From Dictyostelium discoideum (Eukaryota), in assembly GCA_000004695.1 (NCBI GenBank), contig CM000155.2, forward strand, positions 1,120,001 through 1,184,000: a DNA stretch of 64,000 bases, in the 5' to 3' direction. The notes beneath the pieces were generated by a model, which did no database searches, was not told the DNA's origin, and worked only from the letters and a program-made list of their open reading frames with translations. Of this stretch, positions 1,606 to 54,875 are shown piece after piece (within the stretch, counting starts at the first letter, position 1; each line of letters begins with the position of its first letter). The position numbers were made by a program, and so were the translations under genes.

Positions 1606-1897
1606 TAATTATATTAATAAAAAAAACAAAAAAAAAAAAATTTAAAATCCAAGTTTTATCTTTTGTCTATTGTTTTTTTTTTATTTTTTTTTTTTTAATA
1701 ATCCAAAGTTTCCTTAAAAATACCATCAATATTGAGTCATCCAGTTAACATATACTATGGAATTTTAACATGTTTAAAAACAAATAAAATATATTATAAT
1801 TTTAGAAAATAAATAAACTTTATTTAAGTTATTCAAATATTTAACAGTCGATTTTGTATATATATATAATTATATTAAAAACTTGATAATCAAGGAA

Positions 1898-3685
1898 TTA
1901 AGCTGATCTACTTCCCTTTACACGGTATTTGGAATTAAATCTCTTACTTCCTAAGATACCAGTAATACCAAGTCCAGTTAATAAAATGGCAAACACTGCA
2001 GTTGGAGCTATTAAGAGATCTAAAGAATTAACTTCATCAACGCAAACAATATTTTGAACTTCATCTATGAATGGCATAAGATATGAACATTTAATTAATG
2101 GTACAACTTTATCAGTCCAAAGAGTAGTGAGTGAAGTTAAGATATCATAAAGTTGCATAATTTGTTTTGTAGTATTTACAACTTGTTGGTTGTATTGGCA
2201 ACCACCTTGAGAGCAAGAATTAACAGAACTAACATCTACCCAATCACAAGACATAACTTCGGTAAGAATGGATGGATCACAAGTTGATAAATCACCACAA
2301 GTTGGTGCATTCTTACATTTAACATTAAAGTCATGGACAGTAGTATTGAATAAATAAATACTTAATGTTGTATTGCTACAAGTTAGAGTTGGTGGACAAT
2401 CTAAAACATTTTGTTGATATGGTACTGATAATGGGTTATCATTAGGATAACGTGGGAAAGCCAATTGGCAAGCGTCATTGATTTTATCACAACTTGTATC
2501 GGTTGCATTCTGGAGTAGATTATTAACCAATGATTGTAAATCCTCGAAAACAGAGATGGTATTATTGTCATTTTGACAGCCTTCAAAGACCTGTTCGATA
2601 ATTGGATTTGTAAAATTTGATAATTGTTGTACACCAGTTGTATCATAACTTATACAAATATCAGCAACGACACTATTGATTGGATAATGAACAGAGAAAA
2701 CGATCCACATGAATGGAATTAAAATTACCAAAGCGATAGAGGCTGCACGTGAAATTCTTGGTAGACCAATTAGTGCTGATACACCAATGAGGCCTGCCAC
2801 TACCATGCAAAATACTAAACCGACGATAATGATCTTTGTTCTAATATTATTTATATCCTTTGCGTTGGAACTGATATCCTCGCCTTTACTCTCGAGTTCC
2901 TCACCATCGCTAATCAATTGGGTCAATTGTGATTGAATCTCTTGTTTTTGATCAAATTGTTGATATTTAGTCTCATTTAATTGATTACTAATCTCAATCA
3001 ATTGTTCTAAAGTGTATGAGGTTTTATTGAAAACAGTGTCACTCAAATTGTTAATACCAGAGGTCACAGAGGAATTACCCTTTAAACTTGTAATGAAAAC
3101 TGCAACACAACCTGCAACCATAATTAATGTAACCAATTTTAATATAAAAACTCTACCCTTTGAGTAACCTTCACCAATATCTGGGTCATATTTTGGACCT
3201 GGACAAAGAATACCATGTGTTGGTTTACAACCACCAAAACAAAGACATCTAAAAATCCAAAATATTATACCAAAAATTAATGTAATTGCTGCAATTATAA
3301 AGGTAATTCCTGATAATAATATTACTGCTTCAATATATTCATCCCATTTACAATCTTCAATTGTTGTACCACCACAAAATCCTGATGGATATTTTTCAAG
3401 CTAAAAAAAATAAAATAAAAATAAAAATAAAAAAATAAATATAAAAATAATAATAATAAAAAATTAATAAATTAATAAAAATTAATTTTTCAAATTAATC
3501 AATGAATGAATGATTAAATAACTTACATGACCATCAGTTGTAAAAAATGTATATCTTGCAATATCACGATATCTATTTATAATATCCAATGCTTTTGATT
3601 CTGCATCAGCTTTTACAAATTGATAATTACAATTAATAATTAATAATATGATTAATAATGATAAAATTTTATTTATTTTTATCAT
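1898..3685 (-). CDS. Five-pass transmembrane glycoprotein with a signal peptide and tweety/prominin-like topology. It has 2 exons: 3685..3527 and 3400..1898.
   Basis: Exon 1 is MIKINKILSLLIILLIINCNYQFVKADAESKALDIINRYRDIARYTFFTTDGH, followed by a GTAAGT donor (phase 0). The acceptor is ttttttttag at 3401-3402. Exon 2 (LEKYPSGFCGGTTIEDCKWDEYIEAVILLSGITFIIAAITLIFGIIFWIF...) joins in frame with the 412-aa ORF 1898..3136. Hydrophobic segments give an SP-TM1-TM2-(~90 aa loop)-TM3-TM4-(~230 aa Cys-rich N-glycosylated ectodomain)-TM5 layout. Confidence 0.6.
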
Positions 3686-4939
3686 TTTTTTTTTTATTTT
3701 TTTTTTTATTTATTTTATTTTGTTTTTTTTTTTTTCTAATCTTTTTTTTTTTTTTTTTAGTATAATAATTAAACTATATTATATTATTTTTAAAAATAAA
3801 TAAATAAATTAATGAATAAATTGAAATTATAATAATGATTATATTTGTGGTAAAATAAAATTAAAATAAAAAAATAAAAATAAAACTTTTTTTTTTTTTA
3901 TTTTTTTTTTTTTTGAGTGATATCAGACGTGTGAAATTATAATAATAGAATGAAAAAAAAAAACAAGGGGTTATCAATTGTAAAAAAAAAAACAAAAATA
4001 AAATAAAATAATAAATAAAAAAAAAAATGAAATTATAAATAAAACAAAAATAAAAAAAAAAAGAAAAGAAAAATCAAAAAAATGAAAAAAGGAGTTTGAA
4101 ATCTGACAATCGGTTATTAAAGATAGTGTGATAAAAAAATAAAAAAAAAAATCATAAAAACAACTGACCACCTGTCATTTTTTTTTATTATTTTGAAAAT
4201 TTTTGTGCATTGCCAAAGTGTTTTTACAAAATTGTGTTTTTTTTTTTGGTTGTTTTTTTTTTGGAAATGCCAAAATGTCTTAAAGAAATTTTTTTTTTGT
4301 TTTCTTTTTTTTAACTTTTTTTTATTTGTTTTTTTTTTTTTAAAAAAACCGTCACAAAAAATTGTATTTTAAAACTTAAATATTTGATGTAAAAAATAAA
4401 ATAATATTGGGGAAAACACCACACACTTTGGTTTAAAAATATGAATTTTTCTTAAAATTTAAAGAACTTCTTTGTGTACAATTCTTTTTGGTTTAAAGAG
4501 AACACGACTTGAATTCTTTTTTTTTGTGGCACAATTTTATTAAAAAAAAAATGGTTATTGGTTGGGTATTTGTTTTGGATTCAATCAAAAATAAAATATA
4601 CTTTATAATTGTTTAAAATTATCTTTATTCAAAAGAGATAATATTTTAATAAATTATTGTTTTTTTTTTTTTTTTATATAATCATTTAAATTAAATAATA
4701 ATTAACTTTTTATTTATAAACTATAATTATAATTAAAATTTGATATCACACCTATTTATAAATTAAAATTTTTTTATTTTTTTATTTTTTTTTTTGAATT
4801 CCTTTGTCTTCTGGAAATGTTAAAGGATATTGCTTTTATTGTTTGAAGTTTACTTTTTAATATTGATTAAAGGCAATAAACAATAATAATTGTTTTATGA
4901 AAAAACCTAAAGCAGCTATAAATTTTGATTTTCATCAAA

Positions 4940-5021
4940 GACATCGTAGCGAAGTGGTCTAACGCGTTTGACTTGAAATCAAATCTCCTAGGAGGCGCAG
5001 GTTCGAACCCTGCCGATGTCG
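4940..5021 (+). tRNA. tRNA-Ser (anticodon UGA), 82 nt with a long variable arm.
   Basis: GACATCG...CGATGTC+G forms a 7-bp acceptor stem. The anticodon stem is TTTGA/TCAAA with loop CTTGAAA, giving anticodon TGA. The long variable arm is TCTCCTAGGAGGC. The T arm is GCAGGTTCGAACCCTGC. Confidence 0.9.
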
Positions 5022-5070
5022 ATACCTTTTCAATGGAATAGCAGGTTTACGAACTTCGGATATATCATAC

Positions 5071-7637
5071 AAAGGCTCAAGCTAAGAAAAACAACAGCTA
5101 ATCACTATTGTATTCCAGAATCATCTCTCCCAAATATTATCTCATTACGAAATGTTGGAAAATTGGACAGTGACCAGGGACTCAACATGGGACAACCTTG
5201 AAAATGAATTCACCTCACAAGAAATCCTTGAAGTAATAAAACAACTGAACCCACACAAATCTCCAGGTCCAGATGGAATTCCAAACTTATTCTACATAAC
5301 ACACAAAGAAAAACTAGCTCCAATACTGGCCTCAGCATTCAACGACACTCTAAGAAATCCTCATCTAATTAGCAAAAATTACAAAGAAGGCCTCATTATC
5401 ACGATACCTAAAAAGGGAGACCCCGAACTAATCAAAAACAGAAGACCAATTACACTGGCTAACTGTATATATAAAATCCACTCAAAGCTAATAAACAATA
5501 GAATAATCCCAATACTAACGAAAGTGATCAACCACAATCAAAAAGGTTTCGTACCAGGCAGATTCATTCTAGATAATATCATATCAATGAACGAATTAAT
5601 CAACTATTGTAATGATAAAAGAATTAACGGAATAATTACACTATATGATTTCGAAAAAGCTTTTGACTCGATCTCACACGGTTCAATACTTAGATCACTA
5701 CAACACATCAACATTCCAACCAATATAATCAACCTGATAATGAATCTACTCACCAAATCTGAAGCAAGAATTGAAATTAATGGTAGAACTACTATACCCT
5801 TTGAGATCAAAAGAGGAGTTAAACAAGGAGATCCACTATCACCCACCCTGTTCGTCCTTGTAATAGAGGCTTTAGCTAGAAAAATTTTACAAGATGACCG
5901 AATTACTGGCCTTCCTCTAAACAACAGCAACCACAGAGAGAAATTCCCAAAGCTTTGCAGACGACTCGGCTTCAATGGTCCCAGACTCTCAACAACTTGA
6001 ATTAGTACTACAACACTTCAATTCATTTTGCAAAGCCACTTCCTCAAAACTTAACATCGACAAATCTTCATCAATTCTTATAGGCAACCCAGACAATACC
6101 AACCAAAGAATTCCAATATCTACAAATCCAGAAAGATACTTGGGATACTTCTTCACAGGTAAAGGGATAACAAGAAAAATGCCAGAAATATTAAACACAA
6201 TAAGATCATCCTTAGTACTATGGAAAACCACTGACTCAACAATCAAAACCAAAACCAACATCCTCAAAGCATTCGCACTCTCTAAATTAACCTACTATTC
6301 ATATGTAGAGAACTTTAAGGAAGAGGAATTAAACCAAATCAATAAATTAGTCGAATGGTTTTTATCGGCACCAAACAACAAAAATGCTAGTGGATTTCAA
6401 GTTATTAATTTAATGAGAACCAAAAGAGCAAGATACCCACTAAAAGTAGGGGGCTGGAACATTTGGAATATAGAATTGAGACAACTGGCGCAGAAACTTT
6501 GGATCATAAACCAGTTCATCCTAGCACTAGAAACCAAACAAACAAACTCATCTCATCACAAAAGCTGGGAATATCAGATCCAAAAAAACAAATTCACATC
6601 CAGATACCTAAAAGAAAACTTAGATGAATGGAACAAAATAAGAATAAAAAAAGCAATCTTCAACAATAATCTCACATCCATAAAAAACGAAAATGGACAA
6701 CCACTTTCACTGGCAGAATGGTATACCACAATTCAAGACCAAAATCCAACCATCCCTAAAACGGAATTCCAATCATCTCTAAACTTAAGAGGCTACAGCT
6801 ATAATCAACTCTTCAACAACATACTGAAGATAAAAGACCCTAAAACAAGAGACACAATGTTTAGATTCCATGCCAGATGCCTTCCAATAAACTACCTTCA
6901 CAACAAACAATGCCCACTCTGCAAAGAAGATATGAGCAAAGACCCATACGGTCACCTGTTCTTCTCATGCAAGAAAACAAAACAATTCATAAAAATAAAT
7001 AAACTCAAAAATTTCATCTATATTACCACAGGCAAAGGTAAAAACTGGCACCATACAAGAATTAGGCAAAATAACAATTTCATTAATAGAATAACTCCAA
7101 AATTATCACCGACAGCCAAAAAAGATCAAGAAGTGAATGCAGATTACGCCAACCACAGATTCCACAAAGAATACTTTGAATGGAACTATAAAGCAATAGA
7201 CTATGATCTAACCAGATCATTCGCATATAGAAACCTAATGGCCCTTATCCTCCACAACATTTGGATTTGGATTTGCAATCAAATATACAGTGAAGATCCT
7301 TTAACAAATGAATCACTATCATACAGCTCCCTTCTAAAGAAATGGCACAAATTGGCCACTCTAGAATACATCAAAAAAGCAAAAGATCTGAAAAACTTAT
7401 CAGCAAAAGACCATAATAATTTCAAAGATCCTAAGATCCTTCTCACCTCAACGATCAAGCTAAGAAAAACAACAGCTAATTACTATTGTATTCCAGAATC
7501 ATCTCTCCCAAATATTATATCTTTTGATCAATTCATATGATTAAAATAACCCTTCAGCTTAAATGATAAGCCTATAAATAAATATTAAATAAAACTCGTA
7601 TTAACACAGATGGACATATATCAATCTTGTTAATCCA

Positions 7638-7681
<44 letters not shown>
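5071..7681 (+). mobile_element. 5'-truncated and rearranged TRE3-like non-LTR (LINE) retrotransposon. Its first base is 49 bp downstream of tRNA-Ser #1, and it ends in a 36-nt poly(A).
   Basis: The reverse-transcriptase ORF carries FxxGR, LYDFEKAFDSISH and KQGDPLSP motifs. The C-terminal Cys/His motif is HARCLPINYLHNKQCPLCKEDMSKDPYGHLFF. The first ~65 bp (5080-5145) duplicate the element's own 3'-terminal region (7455-7520). Poly(A) runs 7646-7681. The position and orientation relative to the tRNA match TRE3-class behaviour (established knowledge). Confidence 0.7.
5152..7540 (+). pseudogene. Non-LTR retrotransposon ORF2 (RT plus C-terminal Zn-finger-like region). It is frameshifted: ORFs 5152..6000 and 5975..7540 overlap in different frames.
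   Basis: RT domain 5152-6000 (PITLANCIYK, GFVPGRF, LYDFEKAFDSISHGSI, KQGDPLSPTLF). Translation continues in a different frame from about 5975. No EN/APE domain is present, consistent with 5' truncation. Confidence 0.75.
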
Positions 7682-7683
<2 letters not shown>

Positions 7684-8087
7684 AAAGGTTCGAAACTCGG
7701 TCGATTCCCCAATTCTGGGGACATTTCCTTTTATGGATAATGTTTTCTTTCTTTCTTTTGTTGTCCCAATTTTCAAATCAGGATTTGTTTTGATATTTAG
7801 ATGTGGATCTATTTTTTGTGAACTTTTCCAGCTTTTATGGTCAAAGTAAATTGTATTCATTCTCGAAGTTCTTTTCTACTTCGACCAATTCATCTAATCA
7901 ATTACAAGCTTACTTGATTATTTATTTAATTTAAATAATTTTAAATACTAACCTATTTAAAAACTGGATATTAAAAAAAAAAAAAAATTGTTTCTGATGT
8001 GGTTAATAAAAAGCACAAATGGAAATGGTAATACTCCAAAAATACGCAATCTAAATAAAAATAGGATAGAAATTCAATCCAACAATT

Positions 8088-9580
8088 ACACTTTTTTTTT
8101 TTTTGATATAAATAAACTATTGTAGTATACAATTAGTATGTTATTTTTATTTATTTTAGGTTTTTTAGTTTTTGTGAATTTAAAATGGTATGTTATTTTA
8201 GATTAGGTAATTAATAATTAATTGGTTCATTTGTGTTTATGCTCCATTCTTTTTTAATTTTTTTGATGGTTTCAGACCATTCGGTTTCTTTTTGAGTTTT
8301 TGTGAGGTTGTTTTTAATTGAGTATTGGTTAAAGTTTGATAATGTTCTTGAATATTCCAATCTTATTAGCTTGTGCCATTTTGATTTTAATATATCATAA
8401 TCTAGTGTTGTGTTGTTTATTTGGTTGTTCCAATTGTCAATTGATTGAGTTATATTGATGTCAAATAATGATTTGTATAACCATATCCATATTTGGTGAA
8501 TAACTAATGAGATTATGTTCCAATATGCATGTGTTCTGACTAGATCAAGATTTGTGTTTATATAATTCCAGTTGAACCTGTATTTTTTATATTGTGCGTT
8601 TTCTGCAAAATGGAAATTAATATTGATAGTTGGATCTGGTTTAAATGCTTTGTTGTTTGTTTGTGGTTTATAAATGAGTGTGTATAATTTTGTTGTTTGG
8701 TTTTTTGTTAGTGACCAGTTTTTGATTCCATTGCAATTTTTATATATAAAATTTTTTAATTTGTCGTGGTTTATGAAGTTGATTGTGTGCTGACAATTGA
8801 AAAACAAATGACCATAGGGATCATTATTCATTTCATTGTTGCAAATGGGGCAAACATTGTTGTGTAGATGATTAATCGGAAGACATCTAGCATGGAATCT
8901 TTGCATTGTATCACGGCCTTTTGGATCTTTTAGCTTTTGAATTTTGACAAATAGTTGGTCGTATGTGTATTTCCATAATAGTTGTATTGATTGTTGGTGC
9001 GACGTAAGAAGTAGATCTGAATATTTCTTGCCAATATAGTCTTTTGATTTACATTGATGATTGTTGAGTATTGTCGAGTAGATTTCTTTGAGTGTTGGTG
9101 GTAGTGAAATATTATTTGTGGTTAATGTTTGAGAGGTTTGGTTTTTTATTAATATTGGTTGAAGGGTTTGAACTTTATCTTTTAGATGTCCAATTTGAGT
9201 TGCATAGTTTTCCCATTCTTTTTTGATTTTTATAAGGTATGGAGAAGAGATTGATTTGTTGATGATTTGATCCATCCAACTTATCATGTATATTGAATTG
9301 TTTGCAGATTTATGCATTTGTAAAAATCTGTTGTATATCCAAATCTTTTGAGCAACTTGTCGTAATTGTATATTCCACATACCCCAACCACCTTCTTTTA
9401 ATGGTTTTAATGATCTATCATAACACATCAAAGGTATTTTTGCACGTGAATGGATGGTTGATGTGTTGTTTTCAATGGAATTGGTATTGAGAGTTGGTGA
9501 TTCAGAATTTGCGGAAGAATTCATAAACCATGAGATTAATTTATTAATTTGAATTTCTTCATCTTTTGTAAATTCTTCAA
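8088..9580 (-). mobile_element. Second, diverged TRE3-like fragment, 5'-truncated. Only about 1.3 kb of the ORF2 3' end plus the 3' UTR remains. It begins 49 bp downstream of tRNA-Ser #2.
   Basis: Minus-strand ORF 8211..9524 has HARCLPINHLHNNVCPICNNEMNNDPYGHLFFNC and GGWGMWNIQLRQVAQKIWI, paralogous to the element at 5071-7681. A T16 run on the + strand at 8088-8104 is the poly(A) tail. The junction with the conserved tRNA flank (...GATATATCATAC) is at about 9581. Confidence 0.65.
8211..9524 (-). CDS. Retrotransposon ORF2 C-terminal fragment (TRE3-like).
   Basis: See the mobile element above. The C-terminal Cys/His motif and upstream region are homologous to the copy on the + strand. Confidence 0.65.
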   Translation of the reverse strand: MNSSANSESPTLNTNSIENNTSTIHSRAKIPLMCYDRSLKPLKEGGWGMWNIQLRQVAQKIWIYNRFLQMHKSANNSIYMISWMDQIINKSISSPYLIKIKKEWENYATQIGHLKDKVQTLQPILIKNQTSQTLTTNNISLPPTLKEIYSTILNNHQCKSKDYIGKKYSDLLLTSHQQSIQLLWKYTYDQLFVKIQKLKDPKGRDTMQRFHARCLPINHLHNNVCPICNNEMNNDPYGHLFFNCQHTINFINHDKLKNFIYKNCNGIKNWSLTKNQTTKLYTLIYKPQTNNKAFKPDPTININFHFAENAQYKKYRFNWNYINTNLDLVRTHAYWNIISLVIHQIWIWLYKSLFDINITQSIDNWNNQINNTTLDYDILKSKWHKLIRLEYSRTLSNFNQYSIKNNLTKTQKETEWSETIKKIKKEWSINTNEPINY

Positions 9581-9629
9581 GGTATGATATATCCGAAGTT
9601 CGTAAACTTGTGATTCATTCAAAAGGAAT

Positions 9630-9711
9630 CGACATCGGCAGGGTTCGAACCTGCGCCTCCTAGGAGATTTGATTTCAAGTCAAACGCGTTAGACCACTTC
9701 GCTACGATGTC
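9630..9711 (-). tRNA. tRNA-Ser (UGA), copy 2.
   Basis: Exact reverse complement of the 82-nt gene at 4940-5021. About 28 bp of 5' flank (cagctataaattttgattttcatcaaag) and 49 bp of 3' flank are shared with copy 1. Confidence 0.9.
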
Positions 9712-9760
9712 TTTGATGAAAATCAAAATTTATAGCTGAAATACTATTAGAAATAGGGAG

Positions 9761-10423
9761 ATCGAAAAAAACAAACAACAACAACAATCTCTTTTTTTGA
9801 TTATTTCATTTTTCATATAAAAAAGACTTAAAAAACAAATAAATAAATAAATAAACTATTTTAAAAAGCCATCTTTTTACTTTATTGTAATTTATTATTT
9901 GTTTCGTTTTGAGAATTTTGCGTAGCAAAATTTTCAAAAAAAAAGCAAAAAATAATCAGATCGAAAAAAACAAACAACAACAACAATCTCTTTTTTTGAT
10001 TATTTCATTTTTCATATAAAAAAGACTTAAAAAACAAATAAATAAATAAATAAACTATTTTAAAAAGCCATCTTTTTACTTTATTGTAATTTATTATTTG
10101 TTTCGTTTTGAGAATTTTGCGTAGCAAAATTTTCAAAAAAAAAGCAAAAAATAATCAGATCGAAAAAAACAAACAACAACAACAATCTCTTTTTTTGATT
10201 ATTTCATTTTTCATATAAAAAAGACTTAAAAAAAAAATAAATAAATAAATAAACTTTTTTAAAAAGCCATCTTTTTACTTTATTGTAATTTATTATTTGT
10301 TTCGTTTTGAGAATTTTGCGTAGCAAAATTTTCAAAAAAAAAGCAAAAAATAATCAGATCGAAAAAAACAAACAACAACAACAATCTCTTTTTTTGATTA
10401 TTTCATTTTTCATATAAAAAAGA

Positions 10424-10480
<57 letters not shown>
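9761..10480 (+). repeat. Tandem repeat of ~198 bp (A-module-like unit), 3 full copies plus a ~70 bp partial copy ending in A~55.
   Basis: Units begin at 9761, 9959, 10157 and 10355 with (G/C)AGATCGAAAAAAACAAACAACAACAACAATCTC.... The copies are almost identical. Confidence 0.85.
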
Positions 10481-10484
<4 letters not shown>

Positions 10485-10559
10485 GGAACCAAGTTAATTA
10501 GAAAATTTCCAGATTTTTAACTTTTTAAAGAAAAATAAAAAAGATAGAAAGAAAATAAA

Positions 10560-11894
10560 ATGAAAATCACAAACAACACCACAAATATTAAGCAACACAA
10601 ATGCCTACAAAAAATAAGCGAAATTGTGGATAAAACTCAATTAAAAAAAAAACAATTCAAATACGTCATAAACATCAATCACGAACCAGACGATAAAATA
10701 AAAAAAGATTTAGAAAAAAGTTTGGACAAAAAAGATGTTTTAATCAAAAGTAATAATACATTCAAAATTCTCACAGACAGTATTAGTACAGTAATCTATT
10801 TTGTAAATATGTTTGATGCAGAATTAAAAGGACAATTTATAACCACTATAAGACCAAAAAATATGTATACAGATTTTGATTGGTATAAATCACTCACAGA
10901 AATAGAATGGGTAATAGAAAATGAAGGATGTAAACTAATTAAATCAGAAATTAAAGGCGAAACTCTAATTATCAAAACAGTGAAAAGAGTCGTAGAAGAA
11001 TTTGACACTATCATTGAACTAGACAATCTAACATTAATTGGACACTCCAACAAAGGATGGAGAGATCAAACCTCATTACCAGAAAATCAAGAAGAAAACA
11101 AAAATAAAAAACAATCAGATGAACAACAACCACAATCTACATCAGAACAAATACCAAAACAAGGAAAAAGAACAATCATTATCCCACCAATCACATCCTC
11201 ATCTAATGATAAAACATTTATGGCCCTAGATGATACAGCTCAAAAGGTAATAGAAGCATCACTAGAAAACGTAGATGAACTAACAAGAATAGAGAATGAG
11301 ATCAATACACAATCGATAAACAATCAAGAAATTAAAACAAAATCAGAAAAACCTATCGAACCACCATCTCCATACAATACACCAATAAAACAACACGGCG
11401 AAACAAAGGGACTAACAACGGAAGAAAAACTTAGAGAGGCAAATGATATCTTCGACTTCACCAGCCCAAACACTGATGCAATAAGAAAAATAGAATTCCC
11501 ACTTTCAATCCCTTCAAATCAATGGTTCTTCTCCTCTCCAATAAAACATATCATGAGTTTCAGCCCAACCTATGGTACACCATCGAAAATTATCGATTCA
11601 CCAAGTAAATTGTTAAACACACCAAAAAAGAAACAACAAGACAAAACAAACAAGACCAACAAAACACCAGTCAAACCAAAATTGGGTGAATATGGACAAA
11701 AAAGCATAAAAACAAAAATGGATGAAGATATAGACAACTTCAACAAGGAAATTCTAAAACAAATCAATAAATCAAAAAACCCCACAAACACACAAGACCA
11801 ACAACACAATGAACAAAGTAAAGATCAGTTAGAAGACAAAATAAACCAGAAACTTCAAAAGGTAGATAAAAATCTACCCCAAATAAAACTATAA
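10560..11894 (+). CDS. Retrotransposon ORF1 protein, 444 aa (~51 kDa), Ser/Lys/Gln-rich.
   Basis: Continuous ORF lying between the A-module repeats and an ORF2 start (IRIGVWNVQGSNT...ALLTETN, an apurinic/apyrimidinic (AP)-endonuclease N-terminus) at 11900-12190. Its size matches the ~51 kDa ORF1p reported for TRE5-A (established knowledge). Confidence 0.6.
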   Translation: MKITNNTTNIKQHKCLQKISEIVDKTQLKKKQFKYVININHEPDDKIKKDLEKSLDKKDVLIKSNNTFKILTDSISTVIYFVNMFDAELKGQFITTIRPKNMYTDFDWYKSLTEIEWVIENEGCKLIKSEIKGETLIIKTVKRVVEEFDTIIELDNLTLIGHSNKGWRDQTSLPENQEENKNKKQSDEQQPQSTSEQIPKQGKRTIIIPPITSSSNDKTFMALDDTAQKVIEASLENVDELTRIENEINTQSINNQEIKTKSEKPIEPPSPYNTPIKQHGETKGLTTEEKLREANDIFDFTSPNTDAIRKIEFPLSIPSNQWFFSSPIKHIMSFSPTYGTPSKIIDSPSKLLNTPKKKQQDKTNKTNKTPVKPKLGEYGQKSIKTKMDEDIDNFNKEILKQINKSKNPTNTQDQQHNEQSKDQLEDKINQKLQKVDKNLPQIKL

Positions 11895-11899
11895 AGAAA

Positions 11900-41160: not shown

Positions 41161-41453
41161 TAATATCTTAACTTCACTATTTGGAGGTGAAATTTTACCA
41201 ATTGTTGGGGTAACATCTGGCTTAGTAAATGGAGCAATCGAAGGCTTTACAAAGGGGGTTTTTAATTGGTAATTTAATTTAATCTACAAATAACTAACCA
41301 ATTCTCATCAATATTTTGGACTGAAAAAAAAAAAAAAAAAGAAAATCTATTGAAATAGTAAAAATAATTGGAGAATTGGAATATTAAAAAAAGTAATATA
41401 AAAAGTATTTAATTAAATATAATAATAAAAAAAAAATCCGCATTTTTTATATT

Positions 41454-41990
41454 TTATTTAATATAAAGAGATATAATTAACATAAGTTTATGCAGTTGGT
41501 TGGAAAGCAATTTGGTCTTCACCATCGATGATGTAACCGAATGAGAAGGTTTGACCTGTTGGATGACTGGATACCATTGGAGAGCCCAAGTATTTTTGGT
41601 TTCATCAACAGCAAGACCCCAGATTGAGTTTGGACGGAGTGGAGATGAGGTGAAGGTTGGGTTGGTGACGGTTACTGAACCAGTGTTGGTGATGATACCA
41701 CCGAATTGAGAGACAGTTTTACCGTTTTCGAACCATGAGGAGTAAAGAGTTTGATCGATCTTTAATGGTGAAGTAGTGTTGGTACAGACACATTGTGGTT
41801 TAATGTAATAGATTGAAGTTGGTTTGCTACAGTATGAACCGAAACAGGCGTCAGCTTCAGTACGTAAGACACCACCGATAACTCTTGGTGGGCTAGCTCT
41901 TAAACCATAGTAACGACCCAAGATGTATGAGGAATCCATTGGGATGTTTGACATTCAGATTTTGCAAAGTAAATCACTGTTGAAGGTACC
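41454..41990 (-). pseudogene. Truncated, frameshifted 3' copy of the deaminase gene, C-terminal domain only.
   Basis: Identical to 56701-57240 apart from a 1-bp deletion (cctgttgg here versus cctggttgg there) that shifts the frame (...WYPVIQQVKPSHS). The homology breaks at 41990. The shared 3' flank is AAAATCCGCATT...ATAAGTTTATGCAGTTGG. Confidence 0.8.
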
Positions 41991-43269
41991 CCAGACAATG
42001 TGCTGAATGGTCTATTCGTGCAAACCGGGTAATAAAAGGTATTTTTTTTAAAAAAAAAAATGGACTACATGGGCTGAACTGTTTATTAGTGCCAACCGGG
42101 CTGATACAAGGTTTTTTTTTTTTTAAAAAAAAATAAATTGACTGCAAAGATTGACTGATAAAAGGTTTTTTTTTTAAAATGGGCAAAAATAAGGTTTTAA
42201 ATTTTTGATACGGACTGCACGGGCTAATCGAGATAAAAAAAAAAATATCACACTGACTACAAATTATTTTTTTAAAATAAAAAAGGACTACACAGGCTTA
42301 TAAAAAGGTTTTTTTTTAAAAAATTAAAAAAAAAAAAAAATAAAAACAATAAAAAAACGATAAAAACATTACAATTTTTTAATTTTTTTATTTTTTCTTT
42401 TTTAAATGTATTTAAAAAATAAAATATATTTAATAAGAAAATATGAATATATTGTTTGAGACTTTGCAAAAAAAAAAAAAAACCTGAATGTATGTAGTAT
42501 TTTTTATTATTAATTTTTATTTTTTTTTATTTTTATTTTCTGGAAAATTAAAATAAAAAATCACTTTGCATATTATTTTAAGTTTTGTATTATTAATAAA
42601 TAAATAAATTATTTTACATTCTTATTTAGGAGAAAACCAATAAAATAAAAAATAATAAAATGAAATAATAAATAACGTTAATTTTTTTTTTTTTAGGTAA
42701 TGTGTGGTAAATTTTGAAAAAAAAATAAAATTTAATTAAAGTAATAACTAACAATTTTACATTTATATTTAGGAGTTTAAATCAAAAAAAATGAAATTAA
42801 AAATAATCAAATTAATAATATTAATAAATAAATAAAAAAAAAAAAAAAAAAAAAAATAAAATTACCGCATTATTTCATTTTTATTATTTTTTATTGAATA
42901 CTTTTTTTTTAAAAATAGATGGTTTTTTTAAAAATATTTAAGCCCACGTATATCCTAAAAAAACCTTTAAATAAATAACCGTTTCAAAAAAAGACGGTTA
43001 TTTATTTAAATATCTAAAAAAATAATTTTGTAAGGGCTGTACTCAACCCTTTAAAGTGCTGTACGGGCTATGCCCAAAATTAAAAACTTTGAGCACAACC
43101 CGCACAGCACTCTTAAGTGTTGCGCACAGTCCTTACAATGTTTTTACAATTTTGTTTGGGCTGTTGGGGCTTATAGTGCCAAAGTTAAAATTTTTCTCAG
43201 TGGTCGTGTATCTTTTTATATATATATGTTTTACAATTGAACTATACCAGATTATTTAATTTATCTAAT

Positions 43270-44220
43270 TGTTAGCTGGTTGTAAAGAAATACCTTCTAA
43301 TAATTCTTCATTTTCATCGGTATAATCGACCAAGTCCAAACCAATTTTATTACTCTTGTCTTTATGAATTTGTTTTTTACATGAACGTTCAGTTCTGATA
43401 GCTTCAAAATACTTTGATAATATTAGTACTGCTAATGATGCTTTATTTTTATAGGTGGAACTAAAAACATTCTTTACAATACTAAGTTTGCTCTAAGGTG
43501 TAACATTTCTTGAATTCCCAGAATCTTTTTTTAATTTTAAACCTTGCTTTAAAGGTTGATTTTGAATTTGTTTACATGTTGCAGTGATACCATGATTTGA
43601 TAATAATTTATCTCTAATAGTTGATACACTTGGATCATCTTCAAATAATTTTTTTAAATGGAGTTGATTGGTTTCATCCCATAATTGATCACCAATAAAT
43701 TTAAAATTTGGAAGTTTAGTTAAATTATAGTTTCTTCCATCAACCAAAGTTGTGAAGAATTTTGATTAGCAACATTTTCCATCATTTGTGGTCTGTTAGC
43801 ATATGCAAAGAGAGCAGTTACAAAAAGATTTTCTTGATGCATGTCCCATGCTTGGCCAACCTTAGTACCATTATTAAATTTAACCTCTTGCAAGATTGGA
43901 ATTTCTTTCTTGGCACCTTCTATTCTGTCAACAAAACTATTAACTTGAGTACTATTAATGTTGATACCAGAGCACTTCATTTCAACAGAGGTATGAATAA
44001 TTTCCACCATGCATGACGAAGGCTTTAACAAAGGCTTGGATTGATGGCAAACTCCAGAGATATGCATCTTTGCCAGAGTAAACAAGTTGGCAGATACTTT
44101 GATAGAATGAGAACATTCGGTTATCGAAATTTAACTTTCCTTCAGGTTGTTGAATACCTTCACACAAATTATTAGGAATTAAACTAATATTTGGATTATC
44201 AAAAGTACTAAAATCAACAA
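43270..44220 (-). pseudogene. Degenerate copy (multiple frameshifts) of the 345-aa gene at 50735-51772.
   Basis: ORF fragments 43493..43747, 43720..44085 and 43982..44167 each align to successive parts of the 50735-51772 protein (KLPNFKFIGDQLWDETNQLHLK..., GTKVGQAWD.HQENLFVTALFAYANRPQM, CEGIQQPEGK). A T~110 homopolymer lies upstream at 44222-44350. Confidence 0.75.
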
Positions 44221-44257
44221 AATGAACATTTTTTTTTTTTTTTGAAACATATTTATT

Positions 44258-44352
<95 letters not shown>

Positions 44353-44565
44353 TTTACATGTATGTTTATTTATTTATTTATATTTATTTATTATTATATT
44401 CATTTGAAACCTTTTATTCATTATATTTTTTTTTTTAATAAATTATAGATATTATATATATAGAATACTATGGGTAAAAGGAAATAATAATGTTTGTTTG
44501 TAGTTGAAAATATTAAAATTAAAAATAAAAAAAAAAATATAACAAAAAAGATTTTATTTTAATAA

Positions 44566-44606
<41 letters not shown>

Positions 44607-45562
44607 CTTAAAATTTTTTTTTAAAAATTGTGTTTTTATATTTTCCAAACATACTTCATTTAAGGGGGGTCAGATTTACAATCATTTTAAAGGAATGGGG
44701 TTATAAATTTTCTTAAAATAATATTTTAAAATATCTTTGAAGTTAAACATATTTATGTATTTATATAATGATACGATTAGTTTATCAAAATGTGTTTGGT
44801 TGTTTATTATTATAATTGGTTGTTTATTATTATTATTATTTTTTTTAATTAATTACTGCATTTCTTTATTAGATTTAATAATAGTTTAGAAATAATAAAA
44901 TAATATATAAAAAATAAAAAAAAATAATATTAGTTGAAATAATAAAATTTTATATGGTATAATAAATAATTAAATAGTTTGAAATAATATATTAGTAAAA
45001 TTAAATAGTAAAATTAAAATAATAATTTGATACATATATTATTTTATAGATAAATAGTTCAATCATTGAAATAATAACAACAACAACAATAATAATAATA
45101 ATAATTATATATATATCATATTAATAATTAAAACTAGTTTGAAATTAATGGTAATTTAAAGGTTGATATAAATAAATTCAAAAAAATTTGTATGTATTAT
45201 TTTAGTTACTACCTACTACTTTTAAACATGTTGTATTAACATTATATTCAAATTTTTTATTACAATTCCTATAGATACAACTGTCTTTGATAAAAACATT
45301 TCACCTCAAATTAGTAAGTATTTTATTTTTATTATAGTATAGGTAACACTAGCGTTATTCTACAACTTTTTATATATTAACCTTGATAATAAATAATTCT
45401 TTAATCCGATTACTATAAAGATGAAATTTTAGATCTATTTGAATTTGGTATGTTTTAAATTTTATTATTATTATTTATAATTGCAATTATTAATTCTCAA
45501 CATTGGTGTATTAATATAAATTCAATAATTATTTAGATACTACAAAATCATCATATGAAGAT

Positions 45563-46070
45563 GTGATTGAAGAATACAGTAAATTTGAAAATGATTCTCT
45601 TGGATCATTTGAATATCTTGATTACAGTGATTTACGTTTATTATCTAAAAGAAAGTGGAATAATAAAGAAGCTTTAATCATAGGTAATGGTAAAAGTAAT
45701 TATAAAACAACTGTACAAATAAAAGGTGATTTGTTAGATAAAGGTTATTTTAGAACTGAACTTGCTATTGATACATAGTTTGATAGAAATAAGTATTAAT
45801 AAATAAAATGGTTAAAAATTTTAAAAGTACTCAAGAAACCATCACCAGTCATTTCAAGAAATTGGAGTCCAGATGAACAAAAAGCATTAATGGTTGAAGT
45901 TTCTACACTTGGTAATAAATCTGAAATCAACTGGTTTTTCATTTCTCAACAACTCTTTTTAAAAGGTATTAGTAGAAATGCAAGAGAATGTCAAAGAAAA
46001 CATGAATCAATCCAATATGTTGGTCTTTCAGGTAATCCAAAAGCTAAATTTAAAGGAACTTTTGATTAGT
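45563..46070 (+). pseudogene. Disrupted copy of the Myb/SANT-like gene at 53788-54303.
   Basis: Same N-terminal sequence (IEEYSKFENDSLGSFE). A stop follows ELAIDT, and there are frameshifts through the SANT-like region. Confidence 0.7.
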
Positions 46071-46359
46071 TTGTCATATATTTTAAATAAATAACATCTT
46101 CAATATAAAAAATTTCCAATAATTTTATTTTCTTTTTTTTTTGTTATTGATAGTACTTATAACAAAAAATGAATGATAAATAATTAAATTCTAAAAATAA
46201 AATTTTTGATTTAAAAAATAAAATAAAAAATTCAAAAAATAGAATGATTACACGGTGTTTATGATAATAATTTTTTTTTTAATTTTAAAAATTTTTTTAT
46301 TTTAATTTTTAATTTTTTTTTTTATTTTTTTTACCAATTCCAGTCTGTAAACAACATTC

Positions 46360-46696
46360 ATGTATCGATCGTTGTCTACTGGTCCATGTCGATCATGTAA
46401 GTTAAAAACAAGTCCATATGTCGTTGTGGAAAGACCATTGAAAATAGACAATGTGGTTCAACAAGATATGACAAAGCATTTACTTGTGATGTTTGCAAAA
46501 TTCATGAATGTTGTCCAAGCACACCAACACATGATGAAGCAGGTAACCAAGATTGTATAATTTATTCTACATTTTCTTCACTCGATCCAAATTCACAAGA
46601 ATATGCAAATAAATTACAAATTGAGCCATTACAGTCTATATCAATAGTATCACCAAAAATTATTAAAAAAATTGAACCAATCCTTATAAAGATTGT

Positions 46697-46785
<89 letters not shown>

Positions 46786-46790
46786 TTTAA
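46360..46790 (+). CDS. Cys-rich, poly-Ser-tailed ORF fragment(s). The exon structure is unresolved.
   Basis: One frame reads SICRCGKTIENRQCGSTRYDKAFTCDVCKIHECCPSTPTHDEAGNQDCIIYSTFSSLDPNSQEYANKLQIEPLQSISIVSPKIIKKIEPILIKIV(S)n. The same coding block recurs at 55562-55894. A different frame, ...CIDRCLLVHVDHVS, precedes a GTAAGT. Confidence 0.3.
46690..46786. repeat. (AGT)n microsatellite, about 32 units (poly-Ser in frame).
   Basis: A perfect agt periodicity is visible. Confidence 0.9.
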
Positions 46791-47970
46791 TAAATAATAA
46801 AAAATGAATTAATAATAAATTGTAAAGATAAAAAATTAAATAAATTTAATAATAATGAAATTAGAGTAGTATGTTTGCATTCTAATGAATCGATGTATTG
46901 TTGATATGTTAATCTTGATAATGTATAGGTTTTCAAAATTGTCATCCTTGCTATTGTGATCGCTTGACTTTTCCATTTGCTAAGATTATCTTTGATTGCT
47001 GTCAATTTTGAATTTAAACCTATTTTGGTGAAATTGAGACCTAAATATCTTTCTGGTGCATCGCTTAATTTGAATGGTAACCTTGGAGGTATGTCCCCAA
47101 TTACCATCAGGAAATCCCAAATACTTAATTCGGTTACTTATTTTAAATATGGAGTTAATATTTTGAAAAACTCTATAAATTGGATCATCTGGTAGTTGTG
47201 TTGAAGCAGTAGTGGTATTTGCAGTTGGTTTGTTTAAATTAAAAGTTGTTGGAGTATTTGAGGTTTGACCAACTGAATTATGGTTAGCAGAATTAGTATT
47301 GGTGGTGTTACAGGTAGCCATTATTTGATTAAAAATTTAAAATAATTATAAAAAATAATTTTACAATAAAATGAAAAATTTAATTTGTTATTAATATATT
47401 ATTATATTATTGTATATTAAAAAAAGATTGATTATTATTTTTTTTCAGAACCAATTAAAAAAGTACAAATCAGGTGGTAGTATTAACCAATTTGTATTTC
47501 ATCAGATGAAGGAGAATCATCAAACAAATATGATAATTATGATGATTATGAATCAGTCCTTAATCACCAATTTTACTAAAAAAGATGTTCCAACACAATA
47601 CCAACATTATTTGATAATACTAATTCAAGCAAATGCCCTGGTGTTTTTTTTCCAATACTTCAAATTTAAAACTTTATCGAAAATAATATTCGTTAAATTA
47701 TTAAATTAAGTAATATTACCATTTGAGCCTTAAAAAACACAATAGGTATTATCATCTTTGAAAAGTAAAAACATCCCTGCACAAACTGGGATATACAATT
47801 TAAAAAAAAAAAAACATTTTAGCTTTTTCTTGTAATTAATTTATTTTGTTATTTTGTATTATGTTTTGTATAAAAAGAAATTCCAAAAATAAAAAAGTTA
47901 TTCCAAAAAAAAAAATCGGCGTTGTTGTTTATATTTTATTTAATATAAAGAGATATAATTAATTATAAGT

Positions 47971-48477
47971 TTATGCAGTTGGTTGGAAAGCAATTTGGTC
48001 TTCACCGTCGATGATGTAACCGAATGAGAAAGTTTGACCTGGTTGGATGACTGGATACCATTGGAGAGCCCAAGTATTTTTGGTTTCATCAACAGCAAGA
48101 CCCCAGATTGAGTTTGGACGGAGTGGAGATGAGGTGAAGATTGGGTTGGTGACGGTTACTGAACCAGTGTTGGTGATGATACCACCGAATTGAGAGACAG
48201 TTTTACCGTTTTCAAACCATGAGGAGTAACGAGTTTGATCAATCTTTAATGGTGAAGTAGTGTTGGTACAGACACATTGTGGTTTAATGTAATAGATTGA
48301 AGTTGGTTTGCTACAGTATGAACCGAACCAGGCGTCAGCTTCAGTACGTAAAACACCACCGATAACTCTTGGTGGGCTAGCTCTTAAACCATAGTAACGA
48401 CCAAAGATGTATGAGGAATCCATTGGGATGTTTGACATACAGATTTTGCAAAGTAAATCACTGTTGAAGGTACCCAT
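47971..48477 (-). pseudogene. Second truncated 3' copy of the deaminase gene (C-terminal domain, frame intact, no deaminase exon).
   Basis: Near-identical to 56701-57210. The homology breaks at about 48476 (gaaggtaccca|tcttataag), and Trp is replaced by an ATG at the breakpoint. More than 170 bp of shared 3' flank (47800-47970 versus 56530-56700). Confidence 0.8.
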
Positions 48478-49191
48478 CTTATAAGACCAATTAATTCCAA
48501 TGTGGCTTCATCTGTTGCAAATCGATTTTCATTTATTAACTCTTATAATAATCTATCAAAAATTAATAAAATTTCTTTTTTTTTAACATATTTTAAAATT
48601 ATTTATTAATTTTTAATAAATTTTATTATTAGTATTATTTTTTTAATATTAAAATTATAAATAAATGATTAATAAATTATTATTATTCACTAAATAATAT
48701 TATTTTTTGATTAATAAATAATTTCTATAATAAATAAGGAATATATTATTTGAAAAAAAATAAAAATTCTTATATTTTAAAATTTTTTATTTACACCCAT
48801 TATTTTTTATCATTTTATTATAGTTTTTAATAATATATAATATCATATTGTAACTCAAAAATATCTTGTTTATACTAATATTTATTTAATTTTATGAAAT
48901 GTTCTAAATAGAACATTTAAAAATAACTATTAATATTGAATTAATAATTCAATATTAATTATTGCTAACTTAATTTATTTTAATAAATTGTTTCATTTTA
49001 TATAATAAACTCACTAAACACAACTAAATAATAATTCAAAAATAAATAATAATAATTTAGAATATAGTTTTGTTTCAACATTTTATTATAACACATACAA
49101 TTCAGAAAATAATAATAATTTATTTTATTGTTTTGTTTAAAGGGGTTTTCTCCCGTTGTAATTAAATTTAATTAATTTTAAATTTAATTTT

Positions 49192-49233
<42 letters not shown>

Positions 49234-49414
49234 TTAATTTGAATTTCACAAAAGTTTTCATAATAGATATTAGATACCAGATATTAAAAATGTCACACAA
49301 AATCACCATATAAAATAATAATATAAATTTAAAAATAATTTAATTAAAAAGAAAATAATAATTAATTAGAATAAAATTAAAATAATATAATATTGTAGTT
49401 TAAATTGGATCTAA

Positions 49415-49542
49415 CCCTATCGGCTGAGGTTGGAGTAGTTAACAGATTTGAGTCTGCTCAAATCTGAGGACTATAAAAGGAAACTAGGTTTCTAATTCAA
49501 CCTCAGTAATAAATATATACAAATAATAAAAACGCGATAGGG
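49415..49542 (+). ncRNA. Candidate structured RNA or MITE-like nested inverted repeat (~128 nt), copy 1.
   Basis: Outer stem CCCTATCG/CGATAGGG. Inner stem CTGAGGTTG/CAACCTCAG. Internal hairpin CAGATTTGAG-TCTGCT-CTCAAATCTG and GAAAC-TAG-GTTTC. Duplicated at 54876-55000. Confidence 0.35.
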
Positions 49543-49701
49543 CTACGGTCATTAATTAAATACATGTGTACATTTATTTCTTAAATAATTAATCATTTAT
49601 TTTAATAATAAAATAAATAAATTGAATAATAATAAAACAATAAATAAAATTAATAATAATAAATAATCAAATTTTATTAAATAATTTATTAAAAAAAAAG
49701 A

Positions 49702-50070
49702 ATGTCAACTAATAATAATAATAACAACAATAATAATAATGAAGATATTGATAATGATGAATTGCAACAACAGGATAATGAGGAACAACAACAACAACCA
49801 CAGGTATCAACTTTCAATGAACAGCAACGTCAAATAAGGGAACAGCAACAGGTAATAGATAAACAAAATCAACTTCTTCAACAACACATTCAATTAATAA
49901 ATCAACAATCTCAACAACAATTAAATAACCATTCGACACCACCATCATCACCCAACATTACAACACCAATAACTTCAGCAGCAATAACCAACACAATAAA
50001 GAAATCATTAGGAAAAATTAACACTGATGACACCGACCACCAGTTGTTACACATATATGATAAACTATAG
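49702..50070 (+). CDS. Small poly-N/poly-Q protein (122 aa).
   Basis: MSTNNNNNNNNNNEDIDNDELQQQDNEEQQQQPQVSTFNEQQRQIREQQQVIDKQNQLLQQHIQLINQQSQQQLNNHSTPPSSPNITTPITSAAITNTIKKSLGKINTDDTDHQLLHIYDKL. A rearranged second copy lies at 55163-55688. Confidence 0.45.
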   Translation: MSTNNNNNNNNNNEDIDNDELQQQDNEEQQQQPQVSTFNEQQRQIREQQQVIDKQNQLLQQHIQLINQQSQQQLNNHSTPPSSPNITTPITSAAITNTIKKSLGKINTDDTDHQLLHIYDKL

Positions 50071-50734
50071 TTTTATGTTTTAAAAAATGAGAAATTACAA
50101 TAGTATTATTTCCTATTAATTGTTGTATATTATTAAATTATAGGTTTATGTTTTAAAAAATGAGAAATTACAATAGTATAATTTCTCAAAATATGGTAGA
50201 TAAATAAATTTTTTATAGTTTAATGACAAATTAATATTCAATTTTAATTAAAATATTATTAGATTTTATCAATTTTTAATTTATATTAAAATATATTTTT
50301 ATTATGGCCAGATTCTTTTTTATTATTTTATGATAATTTAATAATAAAGTGTGATTAATTATTAATTAGAAATTAATATTAGTTTGTTATAAATTTTATT
50401 AAATTATAATATCATTTCTTAAAATATAAGTTTTTGCGGGTTTAATTTCTCACAAAATAGTAAAATTTCTTAGTTTTTTTTCTCTGGTGAAATAAAATAA
50501 TATAAAATAAAATAAAATAAAATAAAACAAAATAAAACAAAACAAAACAAAACAATTTGAACCCATTTCATCTTCTAAATACACGAAAATTAAAATAAAA
50601 AACACATGTGTTGCAACACTTTTTTTTTTTATTACTTTTTTTATTATTTTTTTTATTATTTTTTTTTTATGATCTTTTTATATATATATTTTACAATTTT
50701 ACTATTCTATAATACCAGATTATTTTATTTAGAT

Positions 50735-51769
50735 CTAATTGCTAGCTGGTTGTAAAGAAATACCATCTAATAATTCTTCTTCATTTTCATCGGTATAATC
50801 GACCAAGTCCAAACCAATTTTAATACTCTTGTCTTTATTAATTTGTTTTTTACATGAACGTTCAGTTCTGATAGCTTCGAAATACTTTGATAATATTAGT
50901 ACTGCTAATGATGCTTTATTTTTATAGGTGGAACTAAAAACATTCTTTACAATACTAAGTTCTTCTTTGCTCCAAGAGGTAACATTTCTTGAATAAGTAG
51001 AAACTTTTTTTAATTTTAAACCTTGCTTTAAAAGTTGACTTTGAATTTGTTTACTTGTTACAGTGATACCATGATTTGATAATAATTTATCTCTAATAGT
51101 TGATACACTTGGATCATCTTCAAATAATGTTTTTAAATGGAGTTGATTGGTTTCATCCCATAATTGATCACCAATAAATTTAAAATTAGGAAGTTTAGTT
51201 AAATTATAGTTTCTTCCATCAACCAAATTTGTGAAGAATTTTGGACTTAAATTATAACCATTTAAATGAAAAATGTTGCTAATCATTTGTGGTCTGTTAG
51301 CATATGCAAAGAGAGCAGTTACAAAAAGATTTTCTTGATGCTCGTCCCATGCTTGGCCAACCTTAGTACCATTATTAAATTTAACCTCTTGCAAGATTGT
51401 TGGAATCTCTATCTTGGCACCTTCTATTCTGTAAACAAAACTTTTAACTTGAGAACCATTAACGTTGATACCAGAGCACTTCATTTCAACAGAGGTATGA
51501 GTTTTATTTCCACCATGCATGACGAAAGCTCTAACAAAAGCTTGGATTGATGGCAAAGTCCAGAGATATGCATCTTTGCCAGAGTAAACAAGTTGGCAGA
51601 TACTTTGATAGAATGAGAACATTCGGTTATCGAAAAAAAATAATACCTTTCCTTCAGGTTGTTGAATACCTTCACACAAATTATTAGGAATTAAACTAAT
51701 ATTTGGATTATCCAAAGTACTAAAATCAACAACATGAACATTTTTTTTTGTTTTTGAAACCTTTTTACT

Positions 51770-51772
<3 letters not shown>
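50735..51772 (-). CDS. Hypothetical 345-aa protein with a C-terminal Myb/SANT-like segment.
   Basis: Intact ORF. The C-terminus reads TSWSKEELSIVKNVFSSTYKNKASLAVLILSKYFEAIRTERSCKKQI (W-x...-RxxxxCxxQ SANT-like pattern). The degenerate paralog is at 43270-44220. A poly-T lies upstream at 51775-51820. Confidence 0.5.
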
Positions 51773-51821
<49 letters not shown>

Positions 51822-53354: not shown

Positions 53355-53787
53355 ACTAGTTTGAAATTAATGGTAATTTAAAGGTTGATATAAATAAATT
53401 CAAAAAAATTTGTATGTATTATTATTTTAGTTACTACCTACTACTTTTAAACATGTTGTATTAACATTATATTCAAATTTTTTATTACAATTCCTATAGA
53501 TACAACTGTCTCTGACAAAAACATTTCACCTCAAAGTAGTAAGTATTTTATTTTTATTATAGTATAGGTAACGCTAGCGTTATTCTACAACTTTTTATAT
53601 ATTAACCTTGATAATAAATAATTCTTTAATCCGATTACTATAAAGATGAAATTTTAGATCTATTTGAATTTGGTATGTTTTAAATTTTATTATTATTATT
53701 TATAATTGCAATTATTAATTCTCAACATTGGTGTATTAATATAAATTCAATAATTATTTAGATACTACAAAATCATCATATGAAGAT

Positions 53788-54641: not shown

Positions 54642-54686
<45 letters not shown>

Positions 54687-54875
54687 TTTGAATTTCACAA
54701 AAGTTTTCATAATAGATATTAGATACCAGATATTAAAAATGTCACACAAAATCACCAAATTTATATATTTTATAAAATAATAATATAAATTTAAAAATAA
54801 TTTAATTAAAAAGAAATAATAATTAATTAGAATAAAATTAAAATAATATAATATTGTAGTTTAAATTGGATCTAA

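Follow-up and report, generated by a model that had tools for sequence, protein, structure and literature searches.

The TRE3 elements of Dictyostelium discoideum (TRE3-A to TRE3-D) are retrotransposons without long terminal repeats (non-LTR) that combine a second open reading frame (ORF2), encoding a reverse transcriptase (RT) and a Cys/His domain, with a poly(A) tail. They insert 40-150 bp downstream of tRNA genes and share their orientation, keyed to an internal or external B box (published external consensus, GTTCRAnYC), they are frequently truncated at the 5' end, and TREs strike the same tRNA one after another, forming tandems. Here we describe two such copies, both dead, at an inverted pair of tRNA-Ser(UGA) genes in a 64,000-nt stretch of D. 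discoideum contig CM000155.2 (the window; 23% G+C). We call them TRE3-x and TRE3-y, labels of the present analysis rather than names from the TRE3-A to TRE3-D series; in the features listed above both are alike with TRE3 and show no essential difference from it. The locus is quite probably a TRE3 landing zone in which each tRNA of the inverted pair was struck independently by a different TRE3 family. A first-pass annotation had recognized the two insertions and placed both at an identical offset of 49 bp from their tRNA; that offset did not survive the mapping of the junctions.

Other non-LTR elements provide a second point of reference, namely for the ways in which 5' ends are formed. As cited in PMC3159450, Zingler et al. 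2005 and Martin et al. 2005 stand for microhomology-mediated 5' attachment and premature termination in L1-type elements, Bibillo and Eickbush 2004 for template jumping or switching by non-LTR reverse transcriptases, and Gilbert et al. 2002 for L1 insertions with large target-site deletions. The TRE5-A authors likewise discuss 5' truncation via microhomology as a general non-LTR mechanism.

Two TRE3 families at an inverted tRNA pair

Using ARAGORN, we identified three tRNA-Ser(UGA) genes of identical sequence: tRNA #1 and tRNA #2, which form an inverted, convergent pair (Table 1), and tRNA #3 (13095-13176, - strand). Offsets are given below as nucleotides downstream (+) or upstream (-) of the tRNA. 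Self-BLAST placed the pair in an inverted block (4913-5070 versus 9738-9582; 96.2% identity over 158 nt, -27 to +49) that takes in the tRNA with 27 nt before it and 49 nt after it, which bears out the earlier observation of a 49-nt flank common to both copies. The blocks differ at six places, which are clustered at +3 to +22, and in the same self-BLAST tRNA #3 has only -12 to +14 in common with them. For comparison we used loci L001-L006 and L008 from newer D. discoideum and sister-species assemblies, which were reached through look-ups of the neighboring genes; the upstream flank of tRNA #1 is orthologous to that of the gene-proximal tRNA of other strains.

TRE3-x and TRE3-y each lie downstream of a tRNA and share its orientation, their 5' end toward the tRNA, at +55 (+/+) and +41 to +49 (-/-), respectively; of the two hallmarks of target-primed reverse transcription, poly(A) is present in both, and only TRE3-x has a target-site duplication (TSD), ACAAAGG. 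The ORF2 of TRE3-x runs from just upstream of the RT domain (Pfam RVT_1, E=1.2e-27) to a stop at 7538-7540, with an extra C at ~5946-5948 that shifts the frame by +1 immediately ahead of the FADD motif. This copy shows 99% identity to the D. discoideum AX4 RT proteins DDB_G0285835 and DDB_G0274837 and 99.1% to a longer element found in L002. In TRE3-y the truncation lies downstream of the RT; over 1526 nt, TRE3-y matches a full-length member of its family in L008 at 96.2%, and the ORF of that member has Exo_endo_phos and RVT_1. It belongs to the protein cluster of DDB_G0274673/DDB_G0278633, one member of which is annotated only as 'similar to HC domain of Tdd-3 and DRE'. Overall, the proteins of both copies are 96-99% identical to AX4 RT-domain proteins, and their database homologues carry names such as 'hypothetical protein' or 'Reverse transcriptase domain-containing'. 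Both ORFs carry RFHARCLPIN-LHN--CP-C...DPYGHLFF-C, the C-terminal Cys/His ('HC') domain, a region that no Pfam model matched in either ORF.

In their C-terminal ORF2 parts, TRE3-x and TRE3-y are 37% identical over 427 amino acids (aa), and the best self-BLAST alignment between them gives 68% nucleotide identity over 217 nt. At this distance the two copies are assigned to different TRE3 families and, because the families differ, represent independent integration events. A single ancestral insertion, duplicated with the tRNA block and diverged thereafter, would suit the clear duplication and inversion of that block and had been named beforehand as the scenario that would undo a double insertion. 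It is almost certainly wrong in view of the low identity between the copies, their truncation at different ORF2 positions, the 96-99% identity of each to its own family elsewhere, and the TSD at one element with none at the other; the family assignments exclude it. The earlier statements that the duplicated, inverted locus was hit twice, and that different internal points of ORF2 from diverged elements follow the common block, are thus upheld.

Table 1. Coordinates of the tRNA-Ser(UGA) pair, the two TRE3 copies and the spacer between them (window positions).
Feature	Position	Strand	Basis
Upstream flank of tRNA #1, 27 nt, common with tRNA #2 (9712-9738, inverted)	4913..4939	+	self-BLAST, flank listing
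tRNA-Ser(UGA) #1	4940..5021	+	ARAGORN
tRNA #1 genuine downstream flank, +1 to +54	5022..5075	+	flank comparison, empty alleles
TRE3-x, 5'-truncated, dead	5076..7682	+	ORFs, RVT_1, homologues
TRE3-x: extra C	5076	+	
TRE3-x: 65-nt copy of 7455-7519	5077-5141	+	
TRE3-x: 3' untranslated region (3'UTR)	7541-7642	+	
TRE3-x: poly(A)40	7643-7682	+	
TSD copy 2 ACAAAGG (7682-7688) overlapping GGTTCGAAAC (7687-7696)	7682..7696	+	
Old degenerate TRE3 3' fragment, 'frag a'	7720..7987 (start approximate)	+	collinear with L004 607-1020, L003 7761-7878
Unique spacer piece S1	7988..8091	+	matches L004 1185-1293, L003 8044-8128
TRE3-y, 5'-truncated, other TRE3 family	8092..9581	-	ORF, homologues
TRE3-y: poly(A)13	8092-8104	-	
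TRE3-y: 3'UTR	8105-8210	-	
TRE3-y: ORF2 C-terminal part with Cys/His motif, stop 8211-8213		-	
8-nt microhomology TATCATAC, ambiguous 5' junction, +41 to +48	9582..9589	-	window/L008/tRNA #1 flank comparison
tRNA #2 unambiguous downstream flank, +1 to +40	9590..9629	-	self-BLAST, three-way comparison
tRNA-Ser(UGA) #2, with tRNA #1-type flanks	9630..9711	-	ARAGORN, flank listing

A target-site duplication places TRE3-x at +55

The heptamer ACAAAGG stands immediately before TRE3-x (5069-5075) and again after its poly(A), with no other occurrence in 5001-7800. Other strains have uninterrupted alleles, which read CA(T/C)ACAAAG(G)TT... and continue in L003 and L004 as ...CATACAAAG(G)TTCGAAAC. The individual empty sites are ...CGGATTTATCACACAAAGGTTAAATTCC for L004_A (also given for L004 as ...ATCACACAAAGGTTAAATTCCTTTTATGGATAATG), ...CGGATATATCATACAAAGTTCGAAACTCG for L004_B (also given as ...ATCATACAAAGTTCGAAACTCG) and ...ATCATATAAAAGTTCGAAACCC for L003_A, and the pre-insertion site of TRE3-x was thus ...ATATCATACAAAGGTTCGAAACTCGG. 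Together, the repeat and the uninterrupted alleles therefore give a TSD of 7 bp and a start of TRE3-x at +55. This lies ~75 bp downstream of the internal B box (GGTTCGAACC, 5000-5009 in tRNA #1) and at the 5' edge of GGTTCGAAAC, an external-B-box-like sequence with one mismatch to the published consensus.

The downstream flank of tRNA #1 contains an RNA polymerase III (Pol III) terminator-like TTTT at 5027-5030 and a conserved motif, ACGAACTTCGG. We considered the flank motif GTTTACGAACTTCGG as an external B box and rejected it, as it does not fit GTTCRAnYC and GGTTCGAAAC is the better candidate. The distal 26 nt of the flank were also considered as the 5' end of an element, a reading rejected because the motif flanks all tRNA-Ser(UGA) copies in six other assemblies. 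A near-palindrome that does not match the B-box consensus, ACGAA(C/G)TTCGG, occurs at 5048-5058, 9593-9603 and 13045-13055 (~+27 to +38). Seven assemblies, other species included, conserve it in the downstream flank of each tRNA-Ser(UGA) copy, and the downstream flank of a tRNA-Asp gene in L008 has a similar motif (CCGAAGTTCCG).

The 5' end of TRE3-x is composite. Its first base is an extra C, and the piece that follows duplicates the end of the element itself; self-BLAST extended this match to 5077-5146 versus 7455-7524 (95.7%), within which the true copy is 65 nt. The self-duplication reported earlier is thereby confirmed with adjusted limits (5077-5141 versus 7455-7519). The accompanying description, a 3'-UTR-like piece followed by the RT, holds for the RT and fails for the piece, which is the last coding part of ORF2 and not 3'UTR. 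The junction between piece and RT reads CCAAATATTATCTCATTA; set against the L002 copy, in which ORF2 is contiguous, it shows a 2-nt (AT) overlap.

The 65-nt piece is most simply read as the product of template switching during reverse transcription, for which chimeric L1 retrocopies offer a parallel, and the template jumping proposed at first sight fits. TRE3-x resembles described cases of template jumping in that 65 nt of its own 3' coding end are joined to internal ORF2 through a short overlap; it differs in that we infer the process from a single copy, and an already rearranged source element would look alike. The element quite probably entered by ordinary target-primed reverse transcription, as a canonical insertion at +55 that generated the 7-bp TSD. 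Reverse transcription would then have stopped in ORF2 and switched by the 2-nt overlap to the 3' end of a TRE3-x RNA, and after 65 more nucleotides had been copied the 5' end would have been sealed with one extra C.

The 5' junction of TRE3-y falls within a microhomology

At the TRE3-y junction, three sequences can be compared: the full-length family member (...ACATATTTATCATACCTTGAAGAATTT..., shorter extract ...TTTATCATACCTTGAAG...), the tRNA flank (...CGGATATATCATAC(AAAGG), shorter extract ATATATCATACAAAGG) and the window (...CGGATATATCATACCTTGAAGAATTT, shorter extract ATATATCATACCTTGAAG). The 8 nt TATCATAC belong equally to the tRNA flank and to the interior of TRE3-y (10/11 nt match), and the junction may therefore lie anywhere from +41 to +49. 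No TSD shared between TRE3-y and the tRNA #2 flank was found. At its other end, the poly(A) abuts S1, a spacer of the other tRNA's side, so that the sequence that should follow +49 of tRNA #2 is absent and the target DNA of TRE3-y would have been lost or rearranged. With this structure, the 5' junction of TRE3-y does not serve as an integration coordinate measured from the tRNA.

This junction resembles L1-type 5' attachment in that a truncated copy is joined through a short common stretch. It differs in its length (8 nt is long for such junctions), in the missing TSD and in the loss of target, and it may reflect a later microhomology-mediated deletion that shortened both element and flank. 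TRE3-y would be an older, irregular event: either its cDNA end or a later deletion came to be linked with the flank of tRNA #2 via TATCATAC (+41 to +48), and the poly(A) side underwent loss or rearrangement of target DNA, hence the lack of a TSD.

A precedent for such a loss comes from an assembly, L002, with 99.86% identity to the window over 9.5 kb. In it, TRE3-x', an element of 3.44 kb (L002 735-4175), replaces window 9522-9713 (~192 bp) and removes tRNA #2 and its flank together with the first 60 bp of TRE3-y; the poly(A) junction of TRE3-x' is 109 bp downstream of tRNA #2 (window 9521) and its 5' junction is at -3. TRE3-x' has the appearance of a recent insertion in which a TRE3 eliminated the tRNA gene it had targeted. 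Both TRE3-x' (~192 bp including tRNA #2) and TRE3-y (no TSD, no expected flank) are comparable to L1 insertions with large target-site deletions, with the difference that at TRE3-y the deletion is deduced.

TRE 5' ends do not share a single coordinate

Mapping of the 5' junctions gives +55 with a TSD for TRE3-x and +41 to +49, in microhomology and without a TSD, for TRE3-y. On these alignments, +49 is best taken as the point where the two flanks cease to resemble each other, and the identical offset as an alignment artifact: the flanks resemble each other over 49 nt by virtue of the duplicated tRNA block and of a TRE3-y junction that happens to fall 6 nt short of the TRE3-x junction. Given the published insertion window of 40-150 bp, two junctions 6-14 bp apart are unsurprising.

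We placed these junctions among other TRE-type 5' ends. In L008, a full-length element of the y family lies at +54 of tRNA-Phe (12-bp TSD TCTAATTGGTAA) and a y fragment at +51 of tRNA-Asp (8-bp TSD ATGCATCC), while in the window tRNA #3 is followed at +56 by a 15-nt TRE-type remnant with A11 and a 13-bp TSD, to which no family was assigned. Further 5' ends are at ~+87 (L003_A), ~+85-95 (the old fragment), +115 (L001) and ~+160 (L004_B). Among the few loci inspected, 5 of ~10 TRE-type 5' ends thus fall at +50 to +56 and the others at ~+85 to +160, which hints at a mode near +50 to +56 with no single shared coordinate. The remnant at tRNA #3 (13000-13052, - strand) consists of ACACCGCTTTTAGGT followed by A11, with the TSD GAAGTTCGGTTTT; the same ...CACCGCTTTTAGGT(A)n end is seen in L008 near 10785.

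That both elements entered at one exact coordinate, +49/+50, set by TFIIIC or a B box, is very unlikely. The idea draws on flanks that are identical up to +49, on the published targeting of TRE3 downstream of B boxes and on the neighboring 5' ends at +51 and +54 (L008) and +55 and +56 (window). It conflicts with the TSD and empty sites that put the start of TRE3-x at +55, with the ambiguity of the TRE3-y junction and with TRE3 insertions elsewhere at ~+87, +109, +115 and +160. Moreover, TRE3-y has no TSD and its poly(A) abuts unrelated spacer, so its first-strand nick was not next to +49. What remains of the tRNA-relative targeting first proposed is the downstream position and same orientation, in agreement with published TRE3 B-box behavior; the exact +49 point does not.

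Several observations weigh against the landing-zone account as set out here. At 7 bp, the TSD of TRE3-x is shorter than the 8-13 bp at other inspected TRE insertions, and its first A is indistinguishable from the poly(A). Evidence for the empty site is drawn from paralogous or orthologous flanks of strains whose spacer is inverted relative to that of AX4. With half of the inspected 5' ends in a 7-nt interval, a sharp preferred position may exist, in which case the near-coincidence of the two junctions would not be purely accidental. Lastly, the 3' side of TRE3-y is compatible with deletion during integration or afterwards, and also with a composite origin together with tRNA #2.

Origin of tRNA #2

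Strains L003-L006 have only two convergent tRNA-Ser(UGA) genes, without tRNA #2, and in L002 tRNA #2 is deleted; the gene appears to be specific to the AX4 lineage. A composite origin would have tRNA #2 and its -27 to +49 block made by the TRE3-y event itself. Under this scenario, the nick would lie downstream of tRNA #3, whose orientation is the same, and the cDNA would anneal via TATCATAC to the tRNA #1 flank. With the tRNA #1 transcript or nearby DNA (fold-back) as template, reverse transcriptase or a repair polymerase would continue through the tRNA to -27, and joining of the end would create a new tRNA gene, a process similar to that of L1-U6 chimeric retrocopies.

The microhomology lies exactly at the boundary of block and element, the four other strains with two tRNAs lack tRNA #2, its flanks, upstream and distally downstream, match the tRNA #1 type, the block, at 158 bp, is short and ends sharply, and TRE3-y, which has no TSD relative to tRNA #2, is located downstream of tRNA #3 and shares its orientation. 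All of this would suit a composite origin, which we nonetheless regard as unlikely. A TSD around the composite of tRNA #2 block and TRE3-y (8092-9738) was looked for and none was found, and the clustering of the six block differences at +3 to +22 suggests gene conversion among older copies rather than one act of copying. A Pol III transcript is not expected to start at -27 or to pass the TTTT at +6, and a 320-bp segment and a TRE5-A element lie between the unit and tRNA #3. In addition, ordinary DNA duplication followed by microhomology-mediated deletion gives the same structure. If tRNA #2 was made by TRE3-y, TRE3 activity could duplicate functional tRNA genes and so create its own landing sites.

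Spacer and neighboring elements

Between the two young copies lies frag a, which ends in a decayed coding tail (...FDQFI, then a stop) and A15 (7973-7987); its L004 counterpart retains CIPESVFPNLFSFDQFI before the stop. Because frag a is common to other strains, it predates both TRE3-x and TRE3-y. S1 comes after frag a in all strains, and the pair is the downstream flank of one tRNA. The inter-tRNA spacer (window 7683-8091, L003 7761-8128, L004 607-1293, L006 8187-8427) has one orientation in the window, L002 and L006 and the opposite one in L003 and L004, with the orientation of the flanking gene constant, and this looks like a flip by recombination between the inverted tRNA blocks.

On the other side of tRNA #2, and head to head with it, an ORF2-less TRE5-A-type element (9758-12572, + strand) starts 46 bp upstream of the tRNA. 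It comprises 3.5 copies of a 199-bp A-module repeat (9751-10452), a ~290-320-bp B-module duplicated at 10426-10749 and 12192-12479, a long internal A-run (~10427-10480), a 444-aa ORF1 (10560-11894), a C-module and a poly(A) tail, and is flanked by a 14-bp TSD (CTATTAGAAATAGG, 9744-9757 and 12573-12586). The arrangement corresponds to that published for TRE5-A (AB-ORF1(/ORF2)-BC modules, ~50 bp upstream), making this a putative TRE5-A as judged by structure. Between its TSD and the downstream flank of tRNA #3 is a G+C-richer segment of ~320 bp (12587-12905), which may have TG...CA ends and may be a solo LTR; no copies of it were found in the fetched loci or elsewhere in the window.

Beyond this region, the neighboring gene at ~1786-3600 (- strand) encodes a protein identical at 411/412 aa to D. 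discoideum AX4 DDB_G0292058 of chromosome 6, which identifies the locus as AX4-type chromosome 6. A tandem duplication of ~1.6 kb with short ORFs (14416-16058 versus 16875-18459) has 83% identity, and 41427-57214 holds a cluster of 90-97% identical repeats, probably other transposable elements.

Implications

The finding is an ordinary one, as downstream insertion, 5' truncation and tandem hits by TRE3 have already been published, and the locus as found is of little consequence other than as a worked case. As such, it indicates that 5' junction offsets of truncated LINE-type copies need correction for TSDs and microhomology before they are used as targeting coordinates. The spacer inversion polymorphism, the deletion of a target tRNA and the possible +50 to +56 mode are side observations useful for Dictyostelium genome dynamics, and the deletion associated with TRE3-x' indicates that 'safe-haven' integration is not always harmless.

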